Counted from the stretch's first letter, positions 1 through 29,407 are shown. The stretch is DNA of 64,000 nt from Escherichia phage vB_EcoM-CHD94UKE2 (MZ234031.1); one strand, 5' to 3'. The notes: generated by a model not told the origin, from the sequence alone. A program made the numbers and translations.

Positions 1-1
1 A

Positions 2-1207
2 ACACTTATTTCAAAACTAGCTGATTCTCCGGAAGACCACAGCTGGTTAGTAAAAGAAACAGAAAAATATGTTCAGCAAAGGGCGATGTTTAATGCTACG
101 TCTAAAATAATCGAAATTCAAACTAATGCTGAGCTTCCTCCGGAAAAACGAAATAAGAAAATGCCAGATGTAGGTGCTATTCCTGACATCATGCGCCAAG
201 CATTATCAATTTCATTTGATAGTTACGTTGGTCATGATTGGATGGATGACTACGAAGCACGCTGGCTATCTTATATGAATAAAGCTCGTAAAGTTCCATT
301 TAAACTCAGAATTCTAAACAAAATTACGAAAGGCGGAGCTGAAACTGGAACACTGAACGTTTTAATGGCTGGCGTTAACGTTGGTAAGTCATTAGGTCTG
401 TGTTCATTGGCAGCAGATTATTTGCAGCTCGGACATAATGTTCTTTACATTTCCATGGAAATGGCAGAAGAAGTCTGTGCTAAGCGTATTGACGCTAACA
501 TGCTTGATGTTTCTCTTGATGACATTGATGATGGGCATATTTCTTACGCTGAGTATAAAGGAAAAATGGAAAAATGGCGTGAGAAATCTACTCTCGGCCG
601 TTTAATCGTTAAACAGTATCCTACTGGTGGAGCAGATGCTAATACATTTCGGTCGCTTTTAAATGAATTAAAGCTCAAGAAGAATTTTGTTCCAACAATC
701 ATTATTGTTGACTATCTAGGTATTTGTAAATCTTGCCGCATTAGAGTTTATTCAGAAAATAGTTACACAACTGTTAAAGCCATCGCAGAAGAATTGCGTG
801 CTCTGGCTGTTGAAACTGAAACTGTTCTTTGGACTGCAGCACAGGTTGGTAAACAAGCTTGGGACTCTTCCGATGTTAACATGAGTGATATCGCAGAATC
901 TGCTGGTCTTCCAGCGACAGCTGATTTTATGCTTGCGGTCATTGAAACCGAGGAGTTAGCAGCTGCTGAACAACAACTCATTAAGCAAATCAAATCACGA
1001 TATGGTGATAAGAATAAATGGAATAAGTTTTTGATGGGTGTTCAAAAAGGAAATCAGAAATGGGTAGAAATTGAACAAGATTCTACTCCAACTGAAGTGA
1101 ACGAAGTAGCAGGTTCACAACAGATTCAGGCTGAACAGAATCGCTATCAAAGAAACGAATCGACTCGAGCTCAGTTAGATGCTTTGGCGAATGAATTAAA
1201 ATTTTAG
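2..1207 (+). CDS. 41: Replicative DNA helicase gp41 (DnaB family), N-terminus cut off by window start
   Basis: Open frame from window edge; Walker A-like AGVNVGKSLGL; C-terminus ...ALANELKF as remembered for T4 gp41; followed by primase gene as in T4. Confidence 0.9.
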   Translation, partial: TLISKLADSPEDHSWLVKETEKYVQQRAMFNATSKIIEIQTNAELPPEKRNKKMPDVGAIPDIMRQALSISFDSYVGHDWMDDYEARWLSYMNKARKVPFKLRILNKITKGGAETGTLNVLMAGVNVGKSLGLCSLAADYLQLGHNVLYISMEMAEEVCAKRIDANMLDVSLDDIDDGHISYAEYKGKMEKWREKSTLGRLIVKQYPTGGADANTFRSLLNELKLKKNFVPTIIIVDYLGICKSCRIRVYSENSYTTVKAIAEELRALAVETETVLWTAAQVGKQAWDSSDVNMSDIAESAGLPATADFMLAVIETEELAAAEQQLIKQIKSRYGDKNKWNKFLMGVQKGNQKWVEIEQDSTPTEVNEVAGSQQIQAEQNRYQRNESTRAQLDALANELKF

Positions 1208-1236
1208 TTTACAAGCTGACAAGACTATGGTATAGT
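1207..1236 (+). promoter_or_regulatory. T4-type early promoter (GTTTAC -35, TATAGT -10)
   Basis: GTTTACAAGCTGACAAGACTATGGTATAGT; -10 bracketed by inverted repeat CAAGACTA/TAGTCTTG. Confidence 0.6.
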
Positions 1237-1265
1237 AGTCTTGTTGGTTAAATGAGGAGATTGTT

Positions 1266-1448
1266 ATGGAATTGGTAAAGGTAGTTTTTATGGGGTGGTT
1301 TAAGAATGAAAGCACGTTTACTAAAGAAACCACAATGATGAAAGATGACGTTCAATGGGCTACTACTCAGTATGCTGAAGTTAATAAAGCATTAGTTAAA
1401 GCTTTCATTGATGACAAGAAAGTATGTGAAGTGGATTGCCGAGGATAA
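1266..1448 (+). CDS. dmd: Dmd-like antitoxin (inhibitor of RnlA/LsoA RNases), 60 aa
   Basis: 60 aa ORF MELVKVVFMGWFKNE... matching remembered T4 Dmd (61.5) size and N-terminus; position next to gene 41. Confidence 0.55.
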   Translation: MELVKVVFMGWFKNESTFTKETTMMKDDVQWATTQYAEVNKALVKAFIDDKKVCEVDCRG

Positions 1449-1449
1449 T

Positions 1450-1707
1450 ATGCATATTGTTTTATTTAAACCTACTCCGTATAACGTCAGGAAAAATACA
1501 CAATTCAAAGCACTTATTGCCGATACGTGGGAATTGGTGTTAGATATTCCAGCAGAAGAAAGTCCTCCATTTGGTCGAGTGGAATTTATTAAGTTTGCTG
1601 TTCGCCCTACGAAGCGGCAGATTCGTCAGTGTAAAAGGTATTTTCGTAAGATCGTTAAGCTAGAGAAACAGTTTGTAACATGTGATTACGCAAAAGTTTT
1701 AAAATAA
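1450..1707 (+). CDS. Small early protein, 85 aa, possibly TifA-like (61.4)
   Basis: ATG at 1450 preceded by GAGGATAA; 85 aa basic protein next to dmd; identification from position and size only. Confidence 0.4.
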   Translation: MHIVLFKPTPYNVRKNTQFKALIADTWELVLDIPAEESPPFGRVEFIKFAVRPTKRQIRQCKRYFRKIVKLEKQFVTCDYAKVLK

Positions 1708-1765
1708 CTGTTTACTTTTATTGGAAATTGAGATACTATAAACATAAACTACTGAGGAGATTATC

Positions 1766-2059
1766 ATGAAAAAATTTATCTTTGCTACAATTTTTGCTTT
1801 AGCTTCTTGTGCTGCTCAGCCTGCTATGGCAGGTTATGATAAAGATTTGTGCGAATGGTCTATGACTGCGGATCAGACTGAGGTTGAAACTCAAATTGAA
1901 GCAGATATTATGAATATCGTTGAGCGTGATCGTCCTGAAATGAAAGCTGAAGTGCAAAAACAGCTTAAGTCTGGTGGTGTAATGCAGTATAATTACGTTC
2001 TGTATTGTGATAAAAACTTTAATAATAAAAATATCATCGCTGAAGTGGTAGGTGAATAA
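1766..2059 (+). CDS. sp: Spackle-like periplasmic protein (superinfection exclusion / lysozyme inhibitor), 97 aa with signal peptide
   Basis: N-terminal signal/lipobox-like MKKFIFATIFALASCAAQPAMA; size 97 aa and location between 41 and 61 as for T4 sp (61.3). Confidence 0.5.
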   Translation: MKKFIFATIFALASCAAQPAMAGYDKDLCEWSMTADQTEVETQIEADIMNIVERDRPEMKAEVQKQLKSGGVMQYNYVLYCDKNFNNKNIIAEVVGE

Positions 2060-2071
2060 TTAGAGGCTAAT

Positions 2072-2236
2072 ATGAAAACGTTTAAAGAATTTATCAAAGA
2101 AGATATGGTCGCTGGAGATTCAGGTGGTAGTCCTGAAAATATCTCTACTGGAACAACGTCAGGCGCTGTAGTAAATAAAGGTCCTGAACAGATTCCTAAA
2201 AAGAAAAAAGAGGAATCTAAAGAAAAAGAAGAGTAA
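2072..2236 (+). CDS. Hypothetical small acidic/lysine-rich protein, 54 aa (below ORF-track threshold)
   Basis: ATG 2072 to TAA 2234-2236, read by hand; stop lies just upstream of gene 61 start. Confidence 0.35.
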   Translation: MKTFKEFIKEDMVAGDSGGSPENISTGTTSGAVVNKGPEQIPKKKKEESKEKEE

Positions 2237-2238
2237 AA

Positions 2239-3267
2239 ATGTCATCAATACCTTGGATTGATAATGAGTTTGCATACCGTGCATTAGCTCATTTACCTAA
2301 ATTCACACAAGTAAATAATAGTTCAACTTTTAAATTACGGTTTAGATGCCCAGTTTGTGGAGATTCAAAAACCGACCAGAATAAAGCCCGTGGATGGTAT
2401 TATGGTGATAATAATGAAGGAAATATTCATTGTTATAACTGTAACTATCATGCACCAATCGGAATATATTTAAAGGAGTTTGAACCTGATTTATATCGTG
2501 AGTATATCTTTGAAATAAGAAAAGAAAAAGGTAAAAGTCGTCCAGTAGAAAAACCTAAAGAACTTCCTAAACAACCTGAGAAGAAAATAATTAAATCTCT
2601 TCCGTCATGTGTTAGATTAGATAAACTGGCGGAAGACCATCCAATTATAAAATATGTAAAAGCTCGTTGTATTCCAAAGGATAAATGGAAATATCTTTGG
2701 TTTACAACCGAATGGCCTAAATTAGTTAATAGCATAGCACCGGGAACATATAAAAAGGAAATTTCTGAGCCTCGTCTTGTTATTCCAATTTATAATGCTA
2801 ATGGAAAAGCTGAGTCTTTTCAAGGACGCGCATTAAAGAAAGATGCTCCTCAAAAATATATCACCATCAAAGCTTATCCTGAAGCAACAAAAATTTATGG
2901 AGTCGAACGAGTTAAAGATGGTGATGTATATGTTCTAGAAGGACCTATAGATTCACTTTTTATTGAAAATGGTATAGCTATTACGGGTGGTCAATTAGAC
3001 CTAGAAGTTGTTCCATTTAAAGATAGACGAGTGTGGGTTTTAGATAATGAACCTCGTCACCCTGACACTATTAAACGAATGACTAAATTAGTTGATGCAG
3101 GAGAAAGGGTTATGTTTTGGGATAAATCTCCCTGGAAATCAAAAGATGTTAATGATATGATTAGAAAGGAAGGTGCAACCACTGAACAAATTATGGAATA
3201 TATGAAAAATAATATTGCCCAGGGGTTAATGGCTAAAATGCGGCTATCTAAATATGCTAAGATTTAA
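2239..3267 (+). CDS. 61: DNA primase gp61
   Basis: 342 aa; N-terminal zinc ribbon CPVCGDS...CYNCNYH; TOPRIM-like core; adjacent to helicase 41. Confidence 0.85.
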   Translation: MSSIPWIDNEFAYRALAHLPKFTQVNNSSTFKLRFRCPVCGDSKTDQNKARGWYYGDNNEGNIHCYNCNYHAPIGIYLKEFEPDLYREYIFEIRKEKGKSRPVEKPKELPKQPEKKIIKSLPSCVRLDKLAEDHPIIKYVKARCIPKDKWKYLWFTTEWPKLVNSIAPGTYKKEISEPRLVIPIYNANGKAESFQGRALKKDAPQKYITIKAYPEATKIYGVERVKDGDVYVLEGPIDSLFIENGIAITGGQLDLEVVPFKDRRVWVLDNEPRHPDTIKRMTKLVDAGERVMFWDKSPWKSKDVNDMIRKEGATTEQIMEYMKNNIAQGLMAKMRLSKYAKI

Positions 3268-3464
3268 ATTAACCCAACTAAAGCAAATGCTAAATCTACG
3301 AATGTATCAAGAGTAACTACTGGAATACTAACGCCATGAGCAATAGCAACTGGCGATAAAACAAAATTCCAAAGTAAAATTCCTATCATAGCAGTAATAG
3401 TAAAAGCTATACGTTTCTTATTACCTTTTATGGCATTAACAAGTGCCATTAATTTTTGTACCAT
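3264..3464 (-). CDS. Small membrane protein, 66 aa, opposite strand to neighbouring early genes
   Basis: Hydrophobic stretches (two predicted TM helices); strong SD AAGGAGG 6 nt upstream of ATG on minus strand; occupies the slot where T4 has dam. Confidence 0.5.
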   Translation of the reverse strand: MVQKLMALVNAIKGNKKRIAFTITAMIGILLWNFVLSPVAIAHGVSIPVVTLDTFVDLAFALVGLI

Positions 3465-3476
3465 ATGTCCTCCTTA

Positions 3477-3501
3477 TTGCTTTATATATTTATTGTATAA
3501 T
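3477..3501 (+). promoter_or_regulatory. Middle promoter candidate (MotA box TTGCTTTA, 11 nt spacer, TATAAT)
   Basis: TTGCTTTATATATTTATTGTATAAT upstream of gene 56. Confidence 0.5.
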
Positions 3502-3537
3502 TAATCTACTAACCCATGAATTGAAAGGAAAAATAAC

Positions 3538-4053
3538 ATGCCACATTTCAACGAATGTAGTCAACTGATCGAAGGCGCTGATAAAGCTCAAAATGAATAT
3601 TGGGATATTCTCGGTGATGAAAAAGACCCGCTGCAGGTAATGCTTGATATGCAGAAATCTTTACAGATTCGTTTAGCAAATGACCGCGAATACTGTTATC
3701 ATCCAGATAAATTAGAAACTGCCGGTGATGTTGTTTCTTGGATGCGTGAACAAAAAGACTGTATTGATGATGAATTCCGCGAACTTCTGACTTCTCTTGG
3801 TGAAATGTCACGTGGTGAAAAAGATGCATCGGCAGTTTGGAAAAAATGGAAAGCACGTTATATTGAAGCGCAAGAAAAACGCATTGATGAAATGTCCCCA
3901 GAAGATCAGCTCGAAATTAAATTTGAGCTTGTGGATATATTTCATTTCGTATTAAATATGTTTGCTGGCCTTGGAATGAATGCGGAAGAAATCTTTAAAC
4001 TTTATTATTTGAAAAATAAACATAATTTTGAACGTCAAGATAATGGGTATTAA
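3538..4053 (+). CDS. 56: dCTPase/dUTPase gp56 (MazG-like nucleotide pyrophosphohydrolase)
   Basis: 171 aa, same length as T4 gp56; all-alpha MazG-like pattern with EFRELL...E acidic motifs. Confidence 0.7.
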   Translation: MPHFNECSQLIEGADKAQNEYWDILGDEKDPLQVMLDMQKSLQIRLANDREYCYHPDKLETAGDVVSWMREQKDCIDDEFRELLTSLGEMSRGEKDASAVWKKWKARYIEAQEKRIDEMSPEDQLEIKFELVDIFHFVLNMFAGLGMNAEEIFKLYYLKNKHNFERQDNGY

Positions 4054-4717
4054 ACAAAAATTTTATAGAACATATATCGTAAAAGTTAGGACGCCGAAAG
4101 GCGTCTTTTGGTACGCTGGGAAACATGAATCATTTATTGTAAATCCATATGATGATAAATATCCGGGGTCAGGCAAAATACTATGGAACATATATCGTAA
4201 GTATGGTTTTAATTATAAAATACGTTGGTCAAAATGCCATGGTTCTAGAGAAAAATCATATGAAGTTGAACGCGAGCTAATATCTGCATTAAAACGTAAA
4301 CACCCAGATACTTGCATTAATATTTCTCCTGGTGGTCAGGGTGGAGAAGGAAGAAAATGGACTGAGCAACAACGATTAGAACATAAACTTAGATTAAACA
4401 ATCCTGAAACAAAAACTCGGATGAAGAATTCACAACGTATAGCCCAAAATAGAGCAGAACGAAAAGCTCGGCAATCTGAAGTAATGAAAAAGTTTTATTC
4501 GAATGGCGGAAATAAAAAGATTTCAGAAGGAACTTCAAGGGCGCAAAGAAAAGCGCCGCATTGGCATGAACCGCTTAAAAGCGAAATACATGAGTTATGG
4601 GTTTCTTTAGGTAAACCAGCAACAGGCCCGGTTGTAAAGGCGCTTAAAGGAAAATATGATGTAACAAGTTCAGCTCTTAAGAATTTAATTTACTTATTCA
4701 GAAAAGAAGATGTATAA
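4043..4717 (+). CDS. segF: GIY-YIG family homing endonuclease, SegF-like
   Basis: ATG 4043 overlaps gene 56 stop; N-terminal GIY-YIG-like FYRTYIVKV...GVFWYAGKH; basic C-terminal DNA-binding tail; sits between 56 and soc where T4 has segF. Confidence 0.55.
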   Translation: MGIKQKFYRTYIVKVRTPKGVFWYAGKHESFIVNPYDDKYPGSGKILWNIYRKYGFNYKIRWSKCHGSREKSYEVERELISALKRKHPDTCINISPGGQGGEGRKWTEQQRLEHKLRLNNPETKTRMKNSQRIAQNRAERKARQSEVMKKFYSNGGNKKISEGTSRAQRKAPHWHEPLKSEIHELWVSLGKPATGPVVKALKGKYDVTSSALKNLIYLFRKEDV

Positions 4718-4720
4718 ATA
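4713..4720 (+). promoter_or_regulatory. Late promoter TATAAATA upstream of soc
   Basis: Exact TATAAATA 31 nt upstream of soc ATG; soc is a late (capsid) gene. Confidence 0.55.
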
Positions 4721-4750
4721 ATCATGTAATTTAAATAAAAGGAGAATTAC

Positions 4751-4996
4751 ATGGCTAGTACTCGCGGTTATGTTAATATTAAAACATTTGAGCAGAAATT
4801 AGATGGAAATAAGAAAATTGAAGGAAAGGAAATTTCTGTAGCTTTCCCTCTTTATTCTGACGTTCACAAAATTTCTGGTGCTCATTACCAGACGTTCCCT
4901 TCAGAAAAAGCAGCATATACTACTGTATATGAAGAAAATCAGCGTACTGAATGGATTGCTGCAAACGAAGATTTGTGGAAAGTAACTGGTGGTTAA
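4751..4996 (+). CDS. soc: Small outer capsid protein Soc
   Basis: 81 aa MASTRGYVNIKTFEQKLDG... matches remembered T4 Soc. Confidence 0.85.
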   Translation: MASTRGYVNIKTFEQKLDGNKKIEGKEISVAFPLYSDVHKISGAHYQTFPSEKAAYTTVYEENQRTEWIAANEDLWKVTGG

Positions 4997-5002
4997 TAAT
5001 TC

Positions 5003-5030
5003 AAGGACTCCTTCGGGAGTCCTTTTTTCA
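5003..5030 (+). terminator. Rho-independent terminator (UUCG-loop hairpin plus T-run)
   Basis: AAGGACTCC-TTCG-GGAGTCCTT followed by TTTTTT; same hairpin recurs at 58632. Confidence 0.75.
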
Positions 5031-5038
5031 TTTAAATG

Positions 5039-5069
5039 GTTTACTTTCCAAAATGAGTATGGTATAATA
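5039..5069 (+). promoter_or_regulatory. T4-type early promoter
   Basis: GTTTAC ... TGGTATAAT. Confidence 0.6.
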
Positions 5070-5094
5070 GAATTATCTTATAGAGGAGAGCGCT

Positions 5095-5301
5095 ATGTTA
5101 AATCGTTGGATTAAACCGAATGAAGATTTAGATATTATCATTTCACGACACGTAATGAAGAAATATGAATTGCAACCATGGTCTACAGAAGTTGTTGTGC
5201 ATTCATTTATGATGTACGCAGATGGTTCTGTTGAATTTAATGCAGAGATTCGATACGATTATGGCGAGAAGCAAGTTGAATTCAAAAGAGGCTTTTTGTA
5301 A
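5095..5301 (+). CDS. Hypothetical early protein, 68 aa
   Basis: ORF with SD AGAGGAGAG upstream. Confidence 0.5.
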   Translation: MLNRWIKPNEDLDIIISRHVMKKYELQPWSTEVVVHSFMMYADGSVEFNAEIRYDYGEKQVEFKRGFL

Positions 5302-5642
5302 TGTTTATCTTTAATTGGTTTAAAAATTTCTTTACGGATTTTTTCTCTACAGTTCCTGGGGAAGGTGTAGTTCCTATTTCAAATGACGACCTTCCTTTAA
5401 CTGTAGTTGAGTATGTTTATATGGGAGATGGAACAGTAGAAGCAGTCACTATGACTTATGAAGAAGCCCAAGAATATTATAAAAATCCTTGGCGCTGGTC
5501 AGTACCTACTACATCATCTAATGCACAGAATACACAGTCTAGTTCTGATTCATATGATACTAATGTTCCTGTTCATGTATGGACGGGCGATTCATGTGGA
5601 AGTTCTTGTGATTCTAGTTGTTCATCTACATCTTGTGATTGA
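5301..5642 (+). CDS. Hypothetical protein with Cys/Ser-rich C-terminal tail, 113 aa
   Basis: ORF; C-terminus [17 protein letters not shown]. Confidence 0.45.
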
Positions 5643-5650
5643 GGAAAATT

Positions 5651-6136
5651 ATGGAAGCAATTTTGTTTGAAATGTCTATCAATAGTATTAGTATGGCGTT
5701 TGTCAAGGATGTTCCAATTACCGTAGCAGTAATGATTGATAAAAGATATGACAATGACATGTATCTAGTAGAAGATTTTATTTCAATGCCAGTTCCAGAA
5801 GATGTTGAAATAAAACTTAAAAAGATCGGAATTATTGAAACTGTACAAAATTCTCCATTTATGGCAATTCAAGCATTTACTAAATCTAACTATATTGATG
5901 TTGCTGAAGCATACTATAATAATAAACCGTTATCCTTCTATTCATATGATTCAATATATGACTGGAAAATTGATAAGGGAAATAAATTTATAATTACGGA
6001 CGAAAGTGCGCTATCATATTTTATTACCTCTTTATGGAATAATTTAAATCCTAATTTGCTAAAAATTCATGAATTTGACGGTGTCCATACTATTGTTTTA
6101 GGTAAAATAAATGAAAGCTCTCAAGAAGATTCTTGA
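5651..6136 (+). CDS. Hypothetical early protein, about 161 aa (soc-mod interval)
   Basis: ATG 5651 after GAGGAAAATT; track ORF begins at TTG 5639. Confidence 0.5.
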
Positions 6137-6314
6137 ATGGTTCAATAGACCAAACTCAATGTACATTGATGATGGTTGGGTTGAACAAGCAAATAAAGAA
6201 ATGCAGAACGAATCAGAAGAATGGATGAAATCAATGATTAGTGCTGAGAAAGAAAAGAAATTAGAACGCTCAGCGCTTAAATTAATGAGAGACATCTATG
6301 GGGATAAATCGTGA
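6111..6314 (+). CDS. Hypothetical protein, 67 aa
   Basis: ATG ORF overlapping the preceding gene end. Confidence 0.4.
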
Positions 6315-6322
6315 ACAAAGAT

Positions 6323-6475
6323 ATGACGTTAGAAGAGGCTAAAGCAAAAGCAAATGAAGCATTGGATTTGCTTCTTAAAATTGGCAGTAAAATGATGGAA
6401 GAAAATGAGAAATATATCCAGGAAAACAAAATTCCTGACGGCCCATTAGTAGGCAAGAGGAAATCACATGATTGA
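6323..6475 (+). CDS. Hypothetical small protein, 50 aa
   Basis: ATG 6323 to TGA 6473-6475, read by hand. Confidence 0.3.
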
Positions 6476-6938
6476 AGTAGCAAAACATTATTCAATAGAA
6501 TTTATGTCTAAAGAAGGTAAATCAGTAAATACACTTGACAAAAAGTGCTCGTTAATTATTCCTTTAGCAGAAAATCCGGATATTTTAATTAAAGATATAA
6601 AAGAAAGAAAATACCCAGAAAATGTTATTCTAATTATAAAGCATACTGAAGATATTTTGCAGAATACTGATTCACCGTTTTCTTCTTCTGAAGCTTTAAC
6701 TATTAAAGGCTATAAAAGAGCTCATGAATATGGTCTTTTTGACCTGTTTGAAGACGATAAAGTTAAATTAGCGAGTCAACCTTCTAAAAGTAAAACATTC
6801 ATTATTGAAGATATTAAAGATATAAATGCATTCGTTAAGATGGTCTGGGCTCATTTTGATGTTGGACTACGCTGGAGAATGTCCGAAGAAGAAAGAAAGA
6901 TTATTGAAGCTAATCGTCAATTTGGTTTTTATCGCTAG
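6468..6938 (+). CDS. Hypothetical early protein, 156 aa
   Basis: ORF with ATGA overlap to upstream ORF. Confidence 0.5.
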
Positions 6939-6946
6939 GAATTAAT

Positions 6947-7129
6947 ATGGATTTATTTGAGATGTTAGAAGATAATCATTCTACGAATATCCAGAATGAT
7001 TCTAGTGATTATAAGAAAGAGTACCGTATAGTATTACAGAATTATGGAATTGAAGCCCCAGATGCTCTTCTAGAAGAACTAGCTTCATACCATCTTGACC
7101 CTCCGCCTTGGGCTCCTTGGGCAAAATAA
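6947..7129 (+). CDS. Hypothetical protein, 60 aa
   Basis: ORF. Confidence 0.4.
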   Translation: MDLFEMLEDNHSTNIQNDSSDYKKEYRIVLQNYGIEAPDALLEELASYHLDPPPWAPWAK

Positions 7130-17573: not shown

Positions 17574-17777
17574 ATGAAATCATATAAAGTAAATTTAGAA
17601 CTTTTTGATAAAGCAGTTCATCGAGAATATAGAATCATTCAACGCTTTTTCGATATGGGAGAAGCTGAAGAGTTTAAAAACCGCTTTAAGGATATTAGAG
17701 ATAAAATTCAATCCGACACCGCAACTAAAGATGAACTACTAGAAGTTGCTGAAGTTATTAAACGCAATATGAATTAA
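17574..17777 (+). CDS. Hypothetical small protein, 67 aa (rIIA.1-like position)
   Basis: ORF with SD GAGGA. Confidence 0.45.
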
Positions 17778-17787
17778 TGAGGAAATT

Positions 17788-19965
17788 ATGATTATCACCA
17801 CTGAAAAAGAAACAATTCTTGGTAATGGTTCTAAATCAAAAGCATTTAGCATCACAGCATCTCCTAAAGTATTTAAAATTCTATCATCTGATTTGTACAC
17901 AAACAAGATTCGCGCAGTAGTCCGTGAATTGATTACCAACATGATTGATGCCCATGCTCTCAATGGAAATCCTGAAAAATTTATCATTCAAGTTCCTGGA
18001 CGTTTAGACCCACGATTTGTTTGTCGAGATTTTGGTCCGGGTATGAGTGATTTTGATATTCAGGGTGATGATAATTCTCCTGGGTTGTATAATTCATACT
18101 TCAGTTCATCTAAAGCTGAATCTAATGACTTTATTGGCGGATTTGGTTTAGGTTCTAAATCTCCGTTTAGTTATACTGATACGTTTAGTATTACTTCGTA
18201 TCATAAAGGTGAAATTCGTGGTTATGTAGCTTACATGGATGGTGATGGCCCACAGATTAAACCTACATTCGTAAAAGAAATGGGTCCAGATGATAAAACT
18301 GGTATTGAAATCGTAGTTCCAGTTGAAGAAAAAGACTTTAGAAACTTTGCTTATGAAGTTTCTTATATCATGCGACCATTCAAAGATTTGGCTATCATTA
18401 ATGGTCTTGACCGCGAAATTGATTATTTTCCGGATTTTGATGATTATTACGGCATAAATCCAGAAAGATACTGGCCTGATCGTGGTGGATTATATGCTAT
18501 CTATGGCGGTATTGTTTATCCTATCGATGGTGTTATTAAAGACCGTAACTGGCTAAGCATTCGTAATGAAGTGAATTACATTAAGTTTCCAATGGGTTCG
18601 CTTGATATTGCTCCATCACGCGAAGCTCTTTCACTAGATGATCGTACTCGTAAAAATATTATTGAACGAGTTAAAGAACTCAGTGAGAAAGCATTTAATG
18701 AAGATGTAAAACGATTTAAAGAATCTACATCTCCTCGTCACACATATCGTGAATTGATGAAGATGGGATATTCTGCTCGAGATTATATGATTAGTAATTC
18801 AGTCAAATTCACGACTAAAAATCTGTCATATAAAAAGATGCAGAGCATGTTTGAACCTGACAATAAGTTATGTAATGCAGGAGTTGTGTATGAAGTAAAT
18901 CTTGATCCTCGACTGAAGCGCATTAAGCAAAGTCATGAAACTTCAGCCGTTGCATCAAGTTATCGTCTGTTTGGTATTAATACAACAAAAATTAATATCG
19001 TTATTGATAATATTAAAAATCGTGTTAATATTGTTCGTGGATTAGCACGAGCGTTAGATGATAGTGAATTTAATAACACTTTGAATATTCATCATAATGA
19101 GCGTCTTCTGTTTATTAATCCAGAAGTAGAATCGCAGATTGATTTGCTTCCTGATATTATGGCGATGTTTGAAAGTGATGAAGTTAACATTCATTATTTG
19201 TCAGAAATTGAAGCTTTAGTTAAAAGCTATATTCCAAAGGTAGTTAAAAGTAAAGCTCCTCGTCCTAAAGCTGCTACAGCATTTAAGTTTGAAATTAAAG
19301 ACGGGCGCTGGGAAAAAGAGGAATTATTTACGCTCACATCAGAAGCAGATGAAATTACTGGGTATGTAGCGTATATGCATCGTTCTGATATTTTCTCTAT
19401 GGATGGTACTACATCTCTTTGTCATCCATCTATGAATATTTTGATTCGTATGGCTAATCTTATTGGCATTAATGAGTTTTATGTTATTCGTCCGCTTTTG
19501 CAGAAAAAGGTAAAAGAACTCGGTCAGTGCCAATGTATTTTTGAAACTCTGCGTGATTTATATGTAGATGCTTTTGATGATGTAGATTATGATAAGTACG
19601 TAGGTTATTCAAGTTCAGCTCAACGATATATTGATAAAATTATCAAGTATCCTGAACTAGATTTTATGATGAAGTACTTCAGTACAGATGAAGTTTCTGA
19701 AGAATATACACGACTCGCTAATATAGTTAGTTCATTGCGCGGTGTATATTTTAATGGTGGAAAAGATACCATCGGTCATGATATCTGGACAGTAACTAAT
19801 CTTTTTGATGTATTATCAAATAATGCTTCAAAAAACAGTGATAAAATGGTTGCTGAGTTTACCAAGAAATTCCGTATTGTTTCCGACTTCATCGGATATC
19901 GCAACTCTTTAAGTGATGATGAAGTTTCCCAAATCGCTAAAACTATGAAGGCCCTTGCGGCCTAA
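17788..19965 (+). CDS. rIIA: rIIA protein (membrane-associated, lysis inhibition / Rex exclusion)
   Basis: 725 aa, same length as T4 rIIA; followed directly by a 312 aa rIIB. Confidence 0.8.
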
Positions 19966-28720: not shown

Positions 28721-29377
28721 TTATTTAGCCCTTCCTAATATTCTGGCCGCCTGAGCACATATTGATTCAAGGCGGTCATTACTTATATGATCATTTCTAT
28801 ACCAGTACATGGTTATTGTTCCAGCATAGATATTATCCAAATTAAAATATGGACAACTGTACATGTAGTTTATTTCGGGAGTAGGCTTTTTAGTTGGTAA
28901 AAAAGCAAATTTTGAGTCGGAATAATAATGACGTCCATTTAAATGAACTGTATATTCATCCATAGTTTTATCAACAGGATATCCTCCAAGTGATTTTTCA
29001 CTTATTGTTGAAGGTAATTTTCCTTCATATGCTATAATATCAACAAAATAGTTTAAGTTTTTAGGGCGGAAAGAATACACCGCACTAAAGTCTGCCTCAG
29101 ATGATATATGAACTATCTGGAGTTGTTCCAGGGCGACAGATTCAAAGCGTGCATTTCTTTCCTTTTCAATAATTTCACTGTATGTTTCATACTTTGATTG
29201 CTTATAGTACTCAAAGAAACTATCTCCCCTATACCAAACAATCGCCATCATAAATAAAAGAATTACGACAGCTACCCGGGAAGCAAGAACTTTCCCGGTA
29301 GCGTTATCTTTGAACAAGCGATCTAGAACACCAAACAGAATACCAGAGGGCGAAAATGATATTCTAGGTGCTGCCAT
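28721..29377 (-). CDS. t: Holin T
   Basis: 218 aa; N-terminal TM (VAVVILLFMMAIVWY) and large C-terminal domain; size matches T4 holin; abuts convergent asiA with zero gap. Confidence 0.85.
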   Translation of the reverse strand: MAAPRISFSPSGILFGVLDRLFKDNATGKVLASRVAVVILLFMMAIVWYRGDSFFEYYKQSKYETYSEIIEKERNARFESVALEQLQIVHISSEADFSAVYSFRPKNLNYFVDIIAYEGKLPSTISEKSLGGYPVDKTMDEYTVHLNGRHYYSDSKFAFLPTKKPTPEINYMYSCPYFNLDNIYAGTITMYWYRNDHISNDRLESICAQAARILGRAK

Positions 29378-29407
29378 AGACCCTCCTTTTAAGGGTATTT
29401 ATTCACA

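Follow-up and report, generated by a model that had tools for sequence, protein, structure and literature searches.

The closest described relatives of the gene considered here are the members of phrog_2024, a function-unknown family that includes RB69ORF029w, VR7ORF033w, RB32ORF030w, S16 gp16.1 and Mineola_027 and whose names all read 'hypothetical', save an evidently spurious 'Holin' and an equally spurious 'DNA packaging ATPase'. Among other small membrane proteins of such phages, T4 already possesses an essential holin, T4 imm and sp are early genes, and exclusion by T4 is set up within minutes by early genes. The gene is an open reading frame (ORF) of 66 amino acids (aa; protein MVQKLMALVNAIKGNKKRIAFTITAMIGILLWNFVLSPVAIAHGVSIPVVTLDTFVDLAFALVGLI) at 3264..3464 on the minus strand of a stretch of Escherichia phage vB_EcoM-CHD94UKE2 (MZ234031.1), 64,000 nucleotides (nt) long and analysed as a whole (hereafter the window). 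Its region is 100% identical to Escherichia phage vB_EcoM-G3F7 (Tequatrovirus, T4-like). The existence of the ORF is already known; it is catalogued as 'hypothetical' in hundreds of genomes, including the identical phage record. Added here are a late-promoter assignment with an internal control, a family with subtypes and an invariant motif, one membrane span instead of two, a correction concerning dam, and the finding that neither the T4 nor the JS98 reference annotation contains the gene. Overall, the locus is best explained as the gene of a putatively late, predicted single-pass inner-membrane protein, probably with a role in a late envelope event, an explanation given slightly better than even odds.

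Searches with the protein returned its own family. The homology search that a preliminary description of the locus had proposed gave a full-length hidden Markov model (HMM) match to phrog_2024 (E=2.4e-30, residues 2-66 against positions 1-65 of the 65-position profile); the listed proteins are direct homologs of the same length, slot and strand, and the ORF is a member. By tblastn, 692 phage records contain the ORF, and the match covers at least 80% of its length in 685. The ORF was found at 80% identity or more in 502 records and gp61 at 95% identity or more in 501; essentially, practically every Tequatrovirus carries it. A narrow profile from the first alignment was searched against 1.84 billion representatives and gave six matches, all from the family itself; a wider profile (A2) gave 117 clusters (90% identity clustering), all from T4-like phages, all unnamed, and with homolog lengths of 62-69 aa throughout. 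The family is shown to be confined to Tevenvirinae.

Selection was analysed on a codon alignment of nine sequences. Between genera, the proportion of synonymous differences (pS) was 0.56-0.87 and hence saturated, the proportion of nonsynonymous differences (pN) was 0.23-0.39, and amino-acid identity was retained at 45-70%. Within lineages, the ratio of nonsynonymous to synonymous substitution rates (dN/dS) was 0.1-0.3. Variable columns numbered 46, 26 and 61 at the first, second and third codon positions, respectively, of 66 each. A strong Shine-Dalgarno (SD) sequence (AAGGAGG, AGGAGG or AAGGAG) was present in all 12 loci examined; in the window it reads AAGGAGG at 3469..3475 (minus strand), 4 nt 5' of the ATG, as the preliminary description had reported. 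The ORF is thereby shown to be a conserved protein-coding gene under purifying selection, a bona fide gene of Tevenvirinae, and the earlier view of it as a genuine small membrane-protein gene and not a chance antisense ORF was borne out by these data and by the 685 of 692 records.

T4 late promoters consist of an 8-bp box, TATAAATA, placed about one helical turn before the transcription start. A box of this type, AATAAATA, was found near the SD at 3487..3494 on the minus strand (read 3494-3487), 22 nt before the ATG. It differs by an A at position -13, which is the commonest late-promoter deviation and occurs in 9 of the 50 listed T4 sites (PMC2988020). As internal control, all NATAAATA sites of the window were collected, and those followed within 8-45 nt by an SD, an ATG and an ORF of at least 40 aa were selected. 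Both strands together hold only 17 NATAAATA sites, and four show the full arrangement: those of soc (PF16855), gene 36 (PF03903), holin t (PF11031) and the ORF at 3264..3464. Since the box is conserved and such an arrangement otherwise precedes only soc, gene 36 and holin t in the window, late, gp55-dependent expression of the ORF is inferred. Transcription is predicted to start at about 3481 in the window and at about 17,722 in T4, which would give a 17-nt leader.

Conservation of the box was followed through ten lineages, in eight of which NATAAATA is kept 12-22 nt 5' of the ATG; it persists despite wholly different flanks, next to dam in some phages and next to gene 56 in others. The form AATAAATA is found 22 nt before the ATG in the window and fPS-2, in F31 and in the metagenomic lineage L016, and 21 nt before it in RB69 and JS98. 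T4 has GATAAATA at 21 nt, and CATAAATA is present in Gaprivervirus (16 nt) and Mineola (12 nt). In S16 the box is ATTAAATA, with two mismatches, at 14 nt, and the metagenomic lineage L014 has none at the usual distance and TTTAAATA 48 nt before the ATG. No sigma-70-like promoter was found on the ORF strand in a scan of 2900-3900. According to published work, early and middle transcription never use this strand (PMC2988020), and a T4 differential RNA sequencing study reports 150 phage start sites, 22 of them antisense (bioRxiv 10.1101/2024.04.04.588121).

Structure was predicted with AlphaFold from alignments of 8 and 39 sequences (mean predicted local distance difference test scores, pLDDT, of 76 and 81). 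Both models contain helices at 2-12, 16-42 and 52-63 and a loop at 43-51. Insertion energies were calculated as simple sums on the Hessa 2005 scale; in the A-type lineages, the first hydrophobic segment came out at about -2.4 to +2.4 kcal/mol, and the C-terminal segment had an unfavourable +5 to +9 kcal/mol (A and C types) or +11.8 kcal/mol (B copy). Two acidic residues are conserved within the C-terminal hydrophobic stretch, and its helix is only 11-12 residues long in both models. Net charge in A- and C-type lineages is +4 or +5 at the N-terminus and -2 at the C-terminus. The two transmembrane segments of the preliminary description are accordingly reduced to one: the models suggest a single span at about residues 16-42 with the N-terminus inside and the C-terminus outside, followed by a short acidic amphipathic helix at the periplasmic interface.

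Residue conservation was assessed by weighted column entropy in the 39-sequence alignment. W32, N33, P38 and G44 are invariant, and A40, P48, G64 and an acidic residue (D/E) at 53 are nearly so. The resulting core, W32-N33-x4-P38-x-A40-x3-G44-x3-P48, corresponds to codons 32-48 (3321..3371, minus strand) and covers the predicted periplasmic end of the helix and the following loop. Codons 17-26 (3387..3416, minus strand), the cytoplasm-proximal N-terminal half of the membrane helix, are variable, and only hydrophobicity is conserved there. Codons 49-66 (3267..3320, minus strand) encode the short C-terminal amphipathic helix with the conserved acidic residue 53 and G64, predicted to be periplasmic or interfacial. 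As the conserved residues map to the juxtamembrane loop and to the half of the helix in the outer leaflet, the functional end of the protein should be located there. One ortholog, from Escherichia phage vB_EcoM_OE5505, lacks three residues of the variable helix half through an in-frame deletion; its UniProt name is 'Holin', without visible support.

On the favoured explanation, the ORF would be transcribed only late, by gp55-directed RNA polymerase from the variant promoter AATAAATA at 3494-3487, and would be translated from its strong SD. The product would be a 66-aa single-pass inner-membrane protein with a basic, cytoplasmic N-terminal amphipathic helix (+5), a span of residues ~16-42 and a short acidic C-terminal helix at the periplasmic face. 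A buried Asn and an AxxxG (small-xxx-small) motif are classical determinants of helix association; since the mid-membrane Asn and AxxxG may drive such association here, self-association or binding of the membrane or periplasmic part of a partner would be the most likely activity. Because expression is predicted to be late, a late envelope event would be the most probable arena, such as tuning of holin T, lysis inhibition or conditioning of the inner membrane before lysis. A lysis or envelope role is speculative. More specifically, the protein might oligomerise via its W-N/AxxxG helix and form a small channel, or dock on holin T or antiholin RI, at the membrane or the periplasmic part of either; this elaboration is regarded as rather unlikely.

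Several points weigh against this explanation. No physical or genetic link connects the ORF with holin T, RI, RIII or the spanins, and it does not lie within a lysis cassette. The late timing is read from sequence signals, and the box is a one-mismatch variant; the G or C that T4 and Gaprivervirus have at -13 is less common than A, and the S16 and L014 deviations given above also count here. The insertion energies are simple sums and should be read as estimates. Finally, the family was not found at this locus in Krischvirus JSE, Pseudotevenvirus RB43 and Karamvirus KaAlpha, and the protein is therefore dispensable for a T4-type life cycle as such.

Comparison with holins gave likenesses and differences. 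Like one-helix holins such as T4 holin T, the protein is small and is predicted to have one membrane helix, a basic cytoplasmic N-terminus and an outside C-terminus, and the Asn and AxxxG of its helix suggest oligomerisation. Gene t (holin t, 28721-29377) is also preceded in the window by the AATAAATA variant, at 29396-29403 (minus strand), 18 nt before its ATG. In contrast, no sequence or fold similarity to holins was found in Pfam, NCBIfam, PHROG or PDB, the sole fold match named 'Holin' being a misnamed ortholog; the large periplasmic domain of T is not present in the ORF protein; and the ORF is not adjacent to endolysin or spanin genes but lies between those for primase and dCTPase, about 25 kb from holin t. 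Set beside the holin pattern of one or more membrane helices with a highly charged cytoplasmic tail, the protein shows one helix, a basic (+5) cytoplasmic N-terminus and no charged C-terminal tail. Viroporin mini-proteins such as influenza M2 and HIV Vpu resemble it in architecture only (60-100 aa, one helix plus an amphipathic helix, conserved polar or aromatic residues in the membrane helix) and show no homology.

Further database and literature searches were mostly negative. Scans of A-type, B-type and two further members against Pfam, NCBIfam and PADLOC gave no match, a profile search of PDB sequences yielded no match below E=0.08, and no match was found in a PDB fold search. The BFVD fold search returned the ortholog labelled 'Holin' and two 63-aa proteins, probably distant relatives. 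One of these, from Enterobacter phage CIP9, shows the fold resemblance at 29% identity. In the literature, no paper naming RB69ORF029w and no T4 ribosome-profiling or small-ORF study was found; the T4 HIDEN-SEQ transposon paper does not mention the locus (bioRxiv 10.1101/2025.11.20.689424), and no link between the family and the phiR1-RT toxicity screen could be made.

The remaining explanations concern either the nucleic acid or a different role for the protein. The ORF might be a chance antisense frame in DNA conserved merely because it contains the terminator of gene 61 and the promoter of gene 56, and a terminator-like hairpin and the middle promoter do overlap its 5' end; however, with saturated synonymous sites, retained amino-acid identity, predominantly third-position variation, an intact frame in 685 of 692 records and a terminator not kept outside Tequatrovirus, this is effectively refuted by the selection analysis and has next to no probability. 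The terminator as the cause of conservation was ruled out because the clear hairpin is largely limited to Tequatrovirus and the protein is conserved across genera. The functional product might also be chiefly a late antisense RNA against the 3' end and 3' untranslated region of the gene 61 message, with the peptide secondary. Complementarity is complete between the ORF and the last ~190 nt of the gene 61 transcript, which reach to the terminator at 3430-3459, and T4 has sites known to be transcribed from both strands, at different times (PMC2988020). No terminator-like site was found 3' of the ORF on the minus strand within about 2 kb, and late RNA should therefore continue antisense into the gene 61 3' end. 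Against a primary role of this RNA, codon-position conservation, the preserved frame and length and the strong SD in all lineages indicate selection on the protein, and the clear gene 61 hairpin is largely a Tequatrovirus feature whereas the protein is conserved across genera. This explanation was judged very improbable, and the antisense run into gene 61 is a by-product or secondary effect.

If the protein is the functional product, it could be an immunity or exclusion factor like Imm or Sp that blocks DNA entry or lysozyme action of a secondary phage at the inner membrane, a kinship raised in the preliminary description. It would be a small inner-membrane protein whose conserved part is predicted to face the periplasm, its gene shares a variable region with sp, ~1.2 kb away, and the family, which some T4-like genera lack, is accessory. 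Imm and Sp are likewise small envelope proteins of the same phages, but they are encoded on the other strand, differ in predicted topology and share no homology with the ORF product. No similarity to Imm, Spackle, a defence family or any PADLOC, Pfam or NCBIfam model was found, and a search of the six-frame translation of the window, sp included, with the family profile gave no paralog, so that the protein is taken to be unrelated to sp. The late-class signals, on a strand unused early, weaken the idea of an early immunity or exclusion factor further, and it appears quite unlikely. An exclusion or envelope function exerted late is conceivable, but no observation favours it in particular. A late host-interaction or anti-defence factor, neutralising either an abortive-infection effector bound to the membrane or a membrane protein with which the host reacts to late phage products, would fit an accessory gene in a hyperplastic region with dam, homing endonucleases and paralog duplications, the diversification of subtypes A, B and C around a small invariant core, and the inferred late timing. 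No homology to known anti-defence proteins was found, however, and the near-universal occupancy in Tequatrovirus with low amino-acid divergence is more that of a housekeeping accessory gene than of an arms-race gene; this possibility was accordingly considered unlikely.

The distribution of the late membrane-protein gene was examined by locus comparison. The same slot and orientation, on the opposite strand, directly adjoining the gene 61 3' end and upstream of gene 56, were found in six genera, namely Tequatrovirus, Mosigvirus (RB69ORF029w), Gaprivervirus (VR7ORF033w and UPEC01), Dhakavirus (JS98, unannotated there), Gelderlandvirus (S16 gp16.1) and Jiaodavirus (Mineola_027), and likewise in the two metagenomic lineages L014 and L016. 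The 39-sequence alignment separates subtype A (Tequatrovirus, Mosigvirus and Gaprivervirus), subtype B (Dhakavirus, the second Gaprivervirus copy and some Klebsiella phages) and subtype C (Jiaodavirus, Gelderlandvirus and Citrobacter phages). Gapriverviruses carry tandem A-type and B-type copies 8 nt apart (UPEC01 locus L012, 2495-2692 and 2701-2901). In UPEC01 and Klebsiella phage SAKp28 the B copy bears the clearly spurious name 'DNA packaging ATPase', and in VR7 it is apparently fused or frameshifted into a 128-aa ORF (L011, 2584-2970). In ECCR664 (OL631257.1, L013, ~2440-2650), one A is missing from an A-run (ggcaataaaagaaaactg versus ggcaataaaaagaaaactg in RB69), which breaks the homolog; the record, 134 kb long, is sparsely annotated, and the loss probably reflects an assembly error. 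Where the family was not found at the locus, other arrangements occur: KaAlpha has a same-strand 94-aa ORF between 61 and 56 (L022, 2529-2813, plus strand), JSE has 61 joined directly to 56, and RB43 has unrelated same-strand ORFs. Given the fold resemblance of the CIP9 63-aa protein, members of the family may occur at other positions of such genomes.

In T4 itself the ORF, 92% identical, lies between dam and gene 61, at 17738-17938 (plus strand) of AF158101.6. Neither of the T4 records AF158101.6 and NC_000866.4 annotates it, the ~310-bp dam-61 gap being left empty, and the exact T4 protein is not in the NCBI or UniProt protein sets, occurring in raw assemblies only. For T4 proteomics or ribosome profiling, MVQKLMALVNAIKGNKKRIAFTISTMVGILLWNFILSPVAIAHGVNIPVVTLDTFVDLAFALVGLI is the sequence to be included in the search database. 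In JS98 (NC_010105.1), a 66-aa B-type homolog (L021, 2526-2726, minus strand) is likewise unannotated, the 290-bp 61-56 interval being left empty; the AATAAATA box lies 21 nt upstream of it. The preliminary description had placed the ORF at the position where T4 carries dam. The T4 order is 61, ORF, dam, 56, and the dam-carrying relatives L004 and L008 retain the ORF as well; as T4 has both genes together, the ORF does not stand in for dam, which is absent anywhere in the 64-kb window. The variable interval is instead that from the ORF start to gene 56, and it holds nothing, dam, a homing endonuclease or a paralog, depending on the phage.

In the window, the plus-strand gene order is partial gene 41, dmd/61.4-like ORFs, sp, 61, 56, a SegF-like ORF and soc (4751..4996). 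The account of the surroundings given in the preliminary description held: the ORF list confirms a 66-aa minus-strand ORF at 3264..3464, every further long ORF in 1..7000 runs along the plus strand, gene 61 (DNA primase, 2239..3267, plus strand) is convergent, and the middle promoter of the divergent gene 56 (dCTPase, 3538..4053, plus strand) lies opposite. The stop codons of the ORF and gene 61 overlap by 4 nt in a TTAA palindrome. The gene 56 middle promoter (3475..3501, plus strand) consists of a MotA box, TATTGCTTTA, at 3475-3484, an 11-nt spacer and TATAAT at 3496-3501, and the annotators of Yersinia phage fPS-2 predicted the same MotA-type promoter. The minus-strand late box at 3487-3494 lies wholly within this spacer, so that two promoter classes stand back to back in a shared 27 bp (3475-3501); the RB69 layout is identical. 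A terminator-like hairpin, ATGGCATTAACAAGTGCCAT (3430-3449), with a T-run follows gene 61 (3430..3459, plus strand) and would serve its transcripts, as indicated by the terminator scan and the fPS-2 annotation. This stretch is used twice, since it also forms codons 2-12 of the opposite-strand ORF. A clear hairpin with T-run was seen only in Tequatrovirus-type loci, with a possible similar one in the Logan lineage L016. The SegF-like ORF (4028..4717, plus strand) encodes 229 aa, overlaps the end of gene 56 and takes the place that segF, a GIY-YIG homing endonuclease gene, has in T4; no Pfam match was obtained for it at E<=0.001, and it is kept although dam is absent throughout the window.

Lytic phage biology takes T4 as its reference organism, and proteomics, CRISPR interference and transposon screens draw on the T4 gene list; a gene missing from AF158101 and NC_000866 is therefore invisible to them. 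Correction of the T4 annotation is cheap, and the gene, which is 200 bp long, non-overlapping and apparently non-essential, is easily tested. Should it encode a dispensable accessory protein, the result would amount to a small annotation correction. A late inner-membrane protein with its conserved part at the periplasmic face could, as a guess, bear on lysis timing or lysis inhibition. If the channel or docking role were true, lysis timing or lysis inhibition would turn out to involve a component so far missed in the best-studied lytic phage, one that would have stayed hidden because its gene is absent from the T4 reference annotation.

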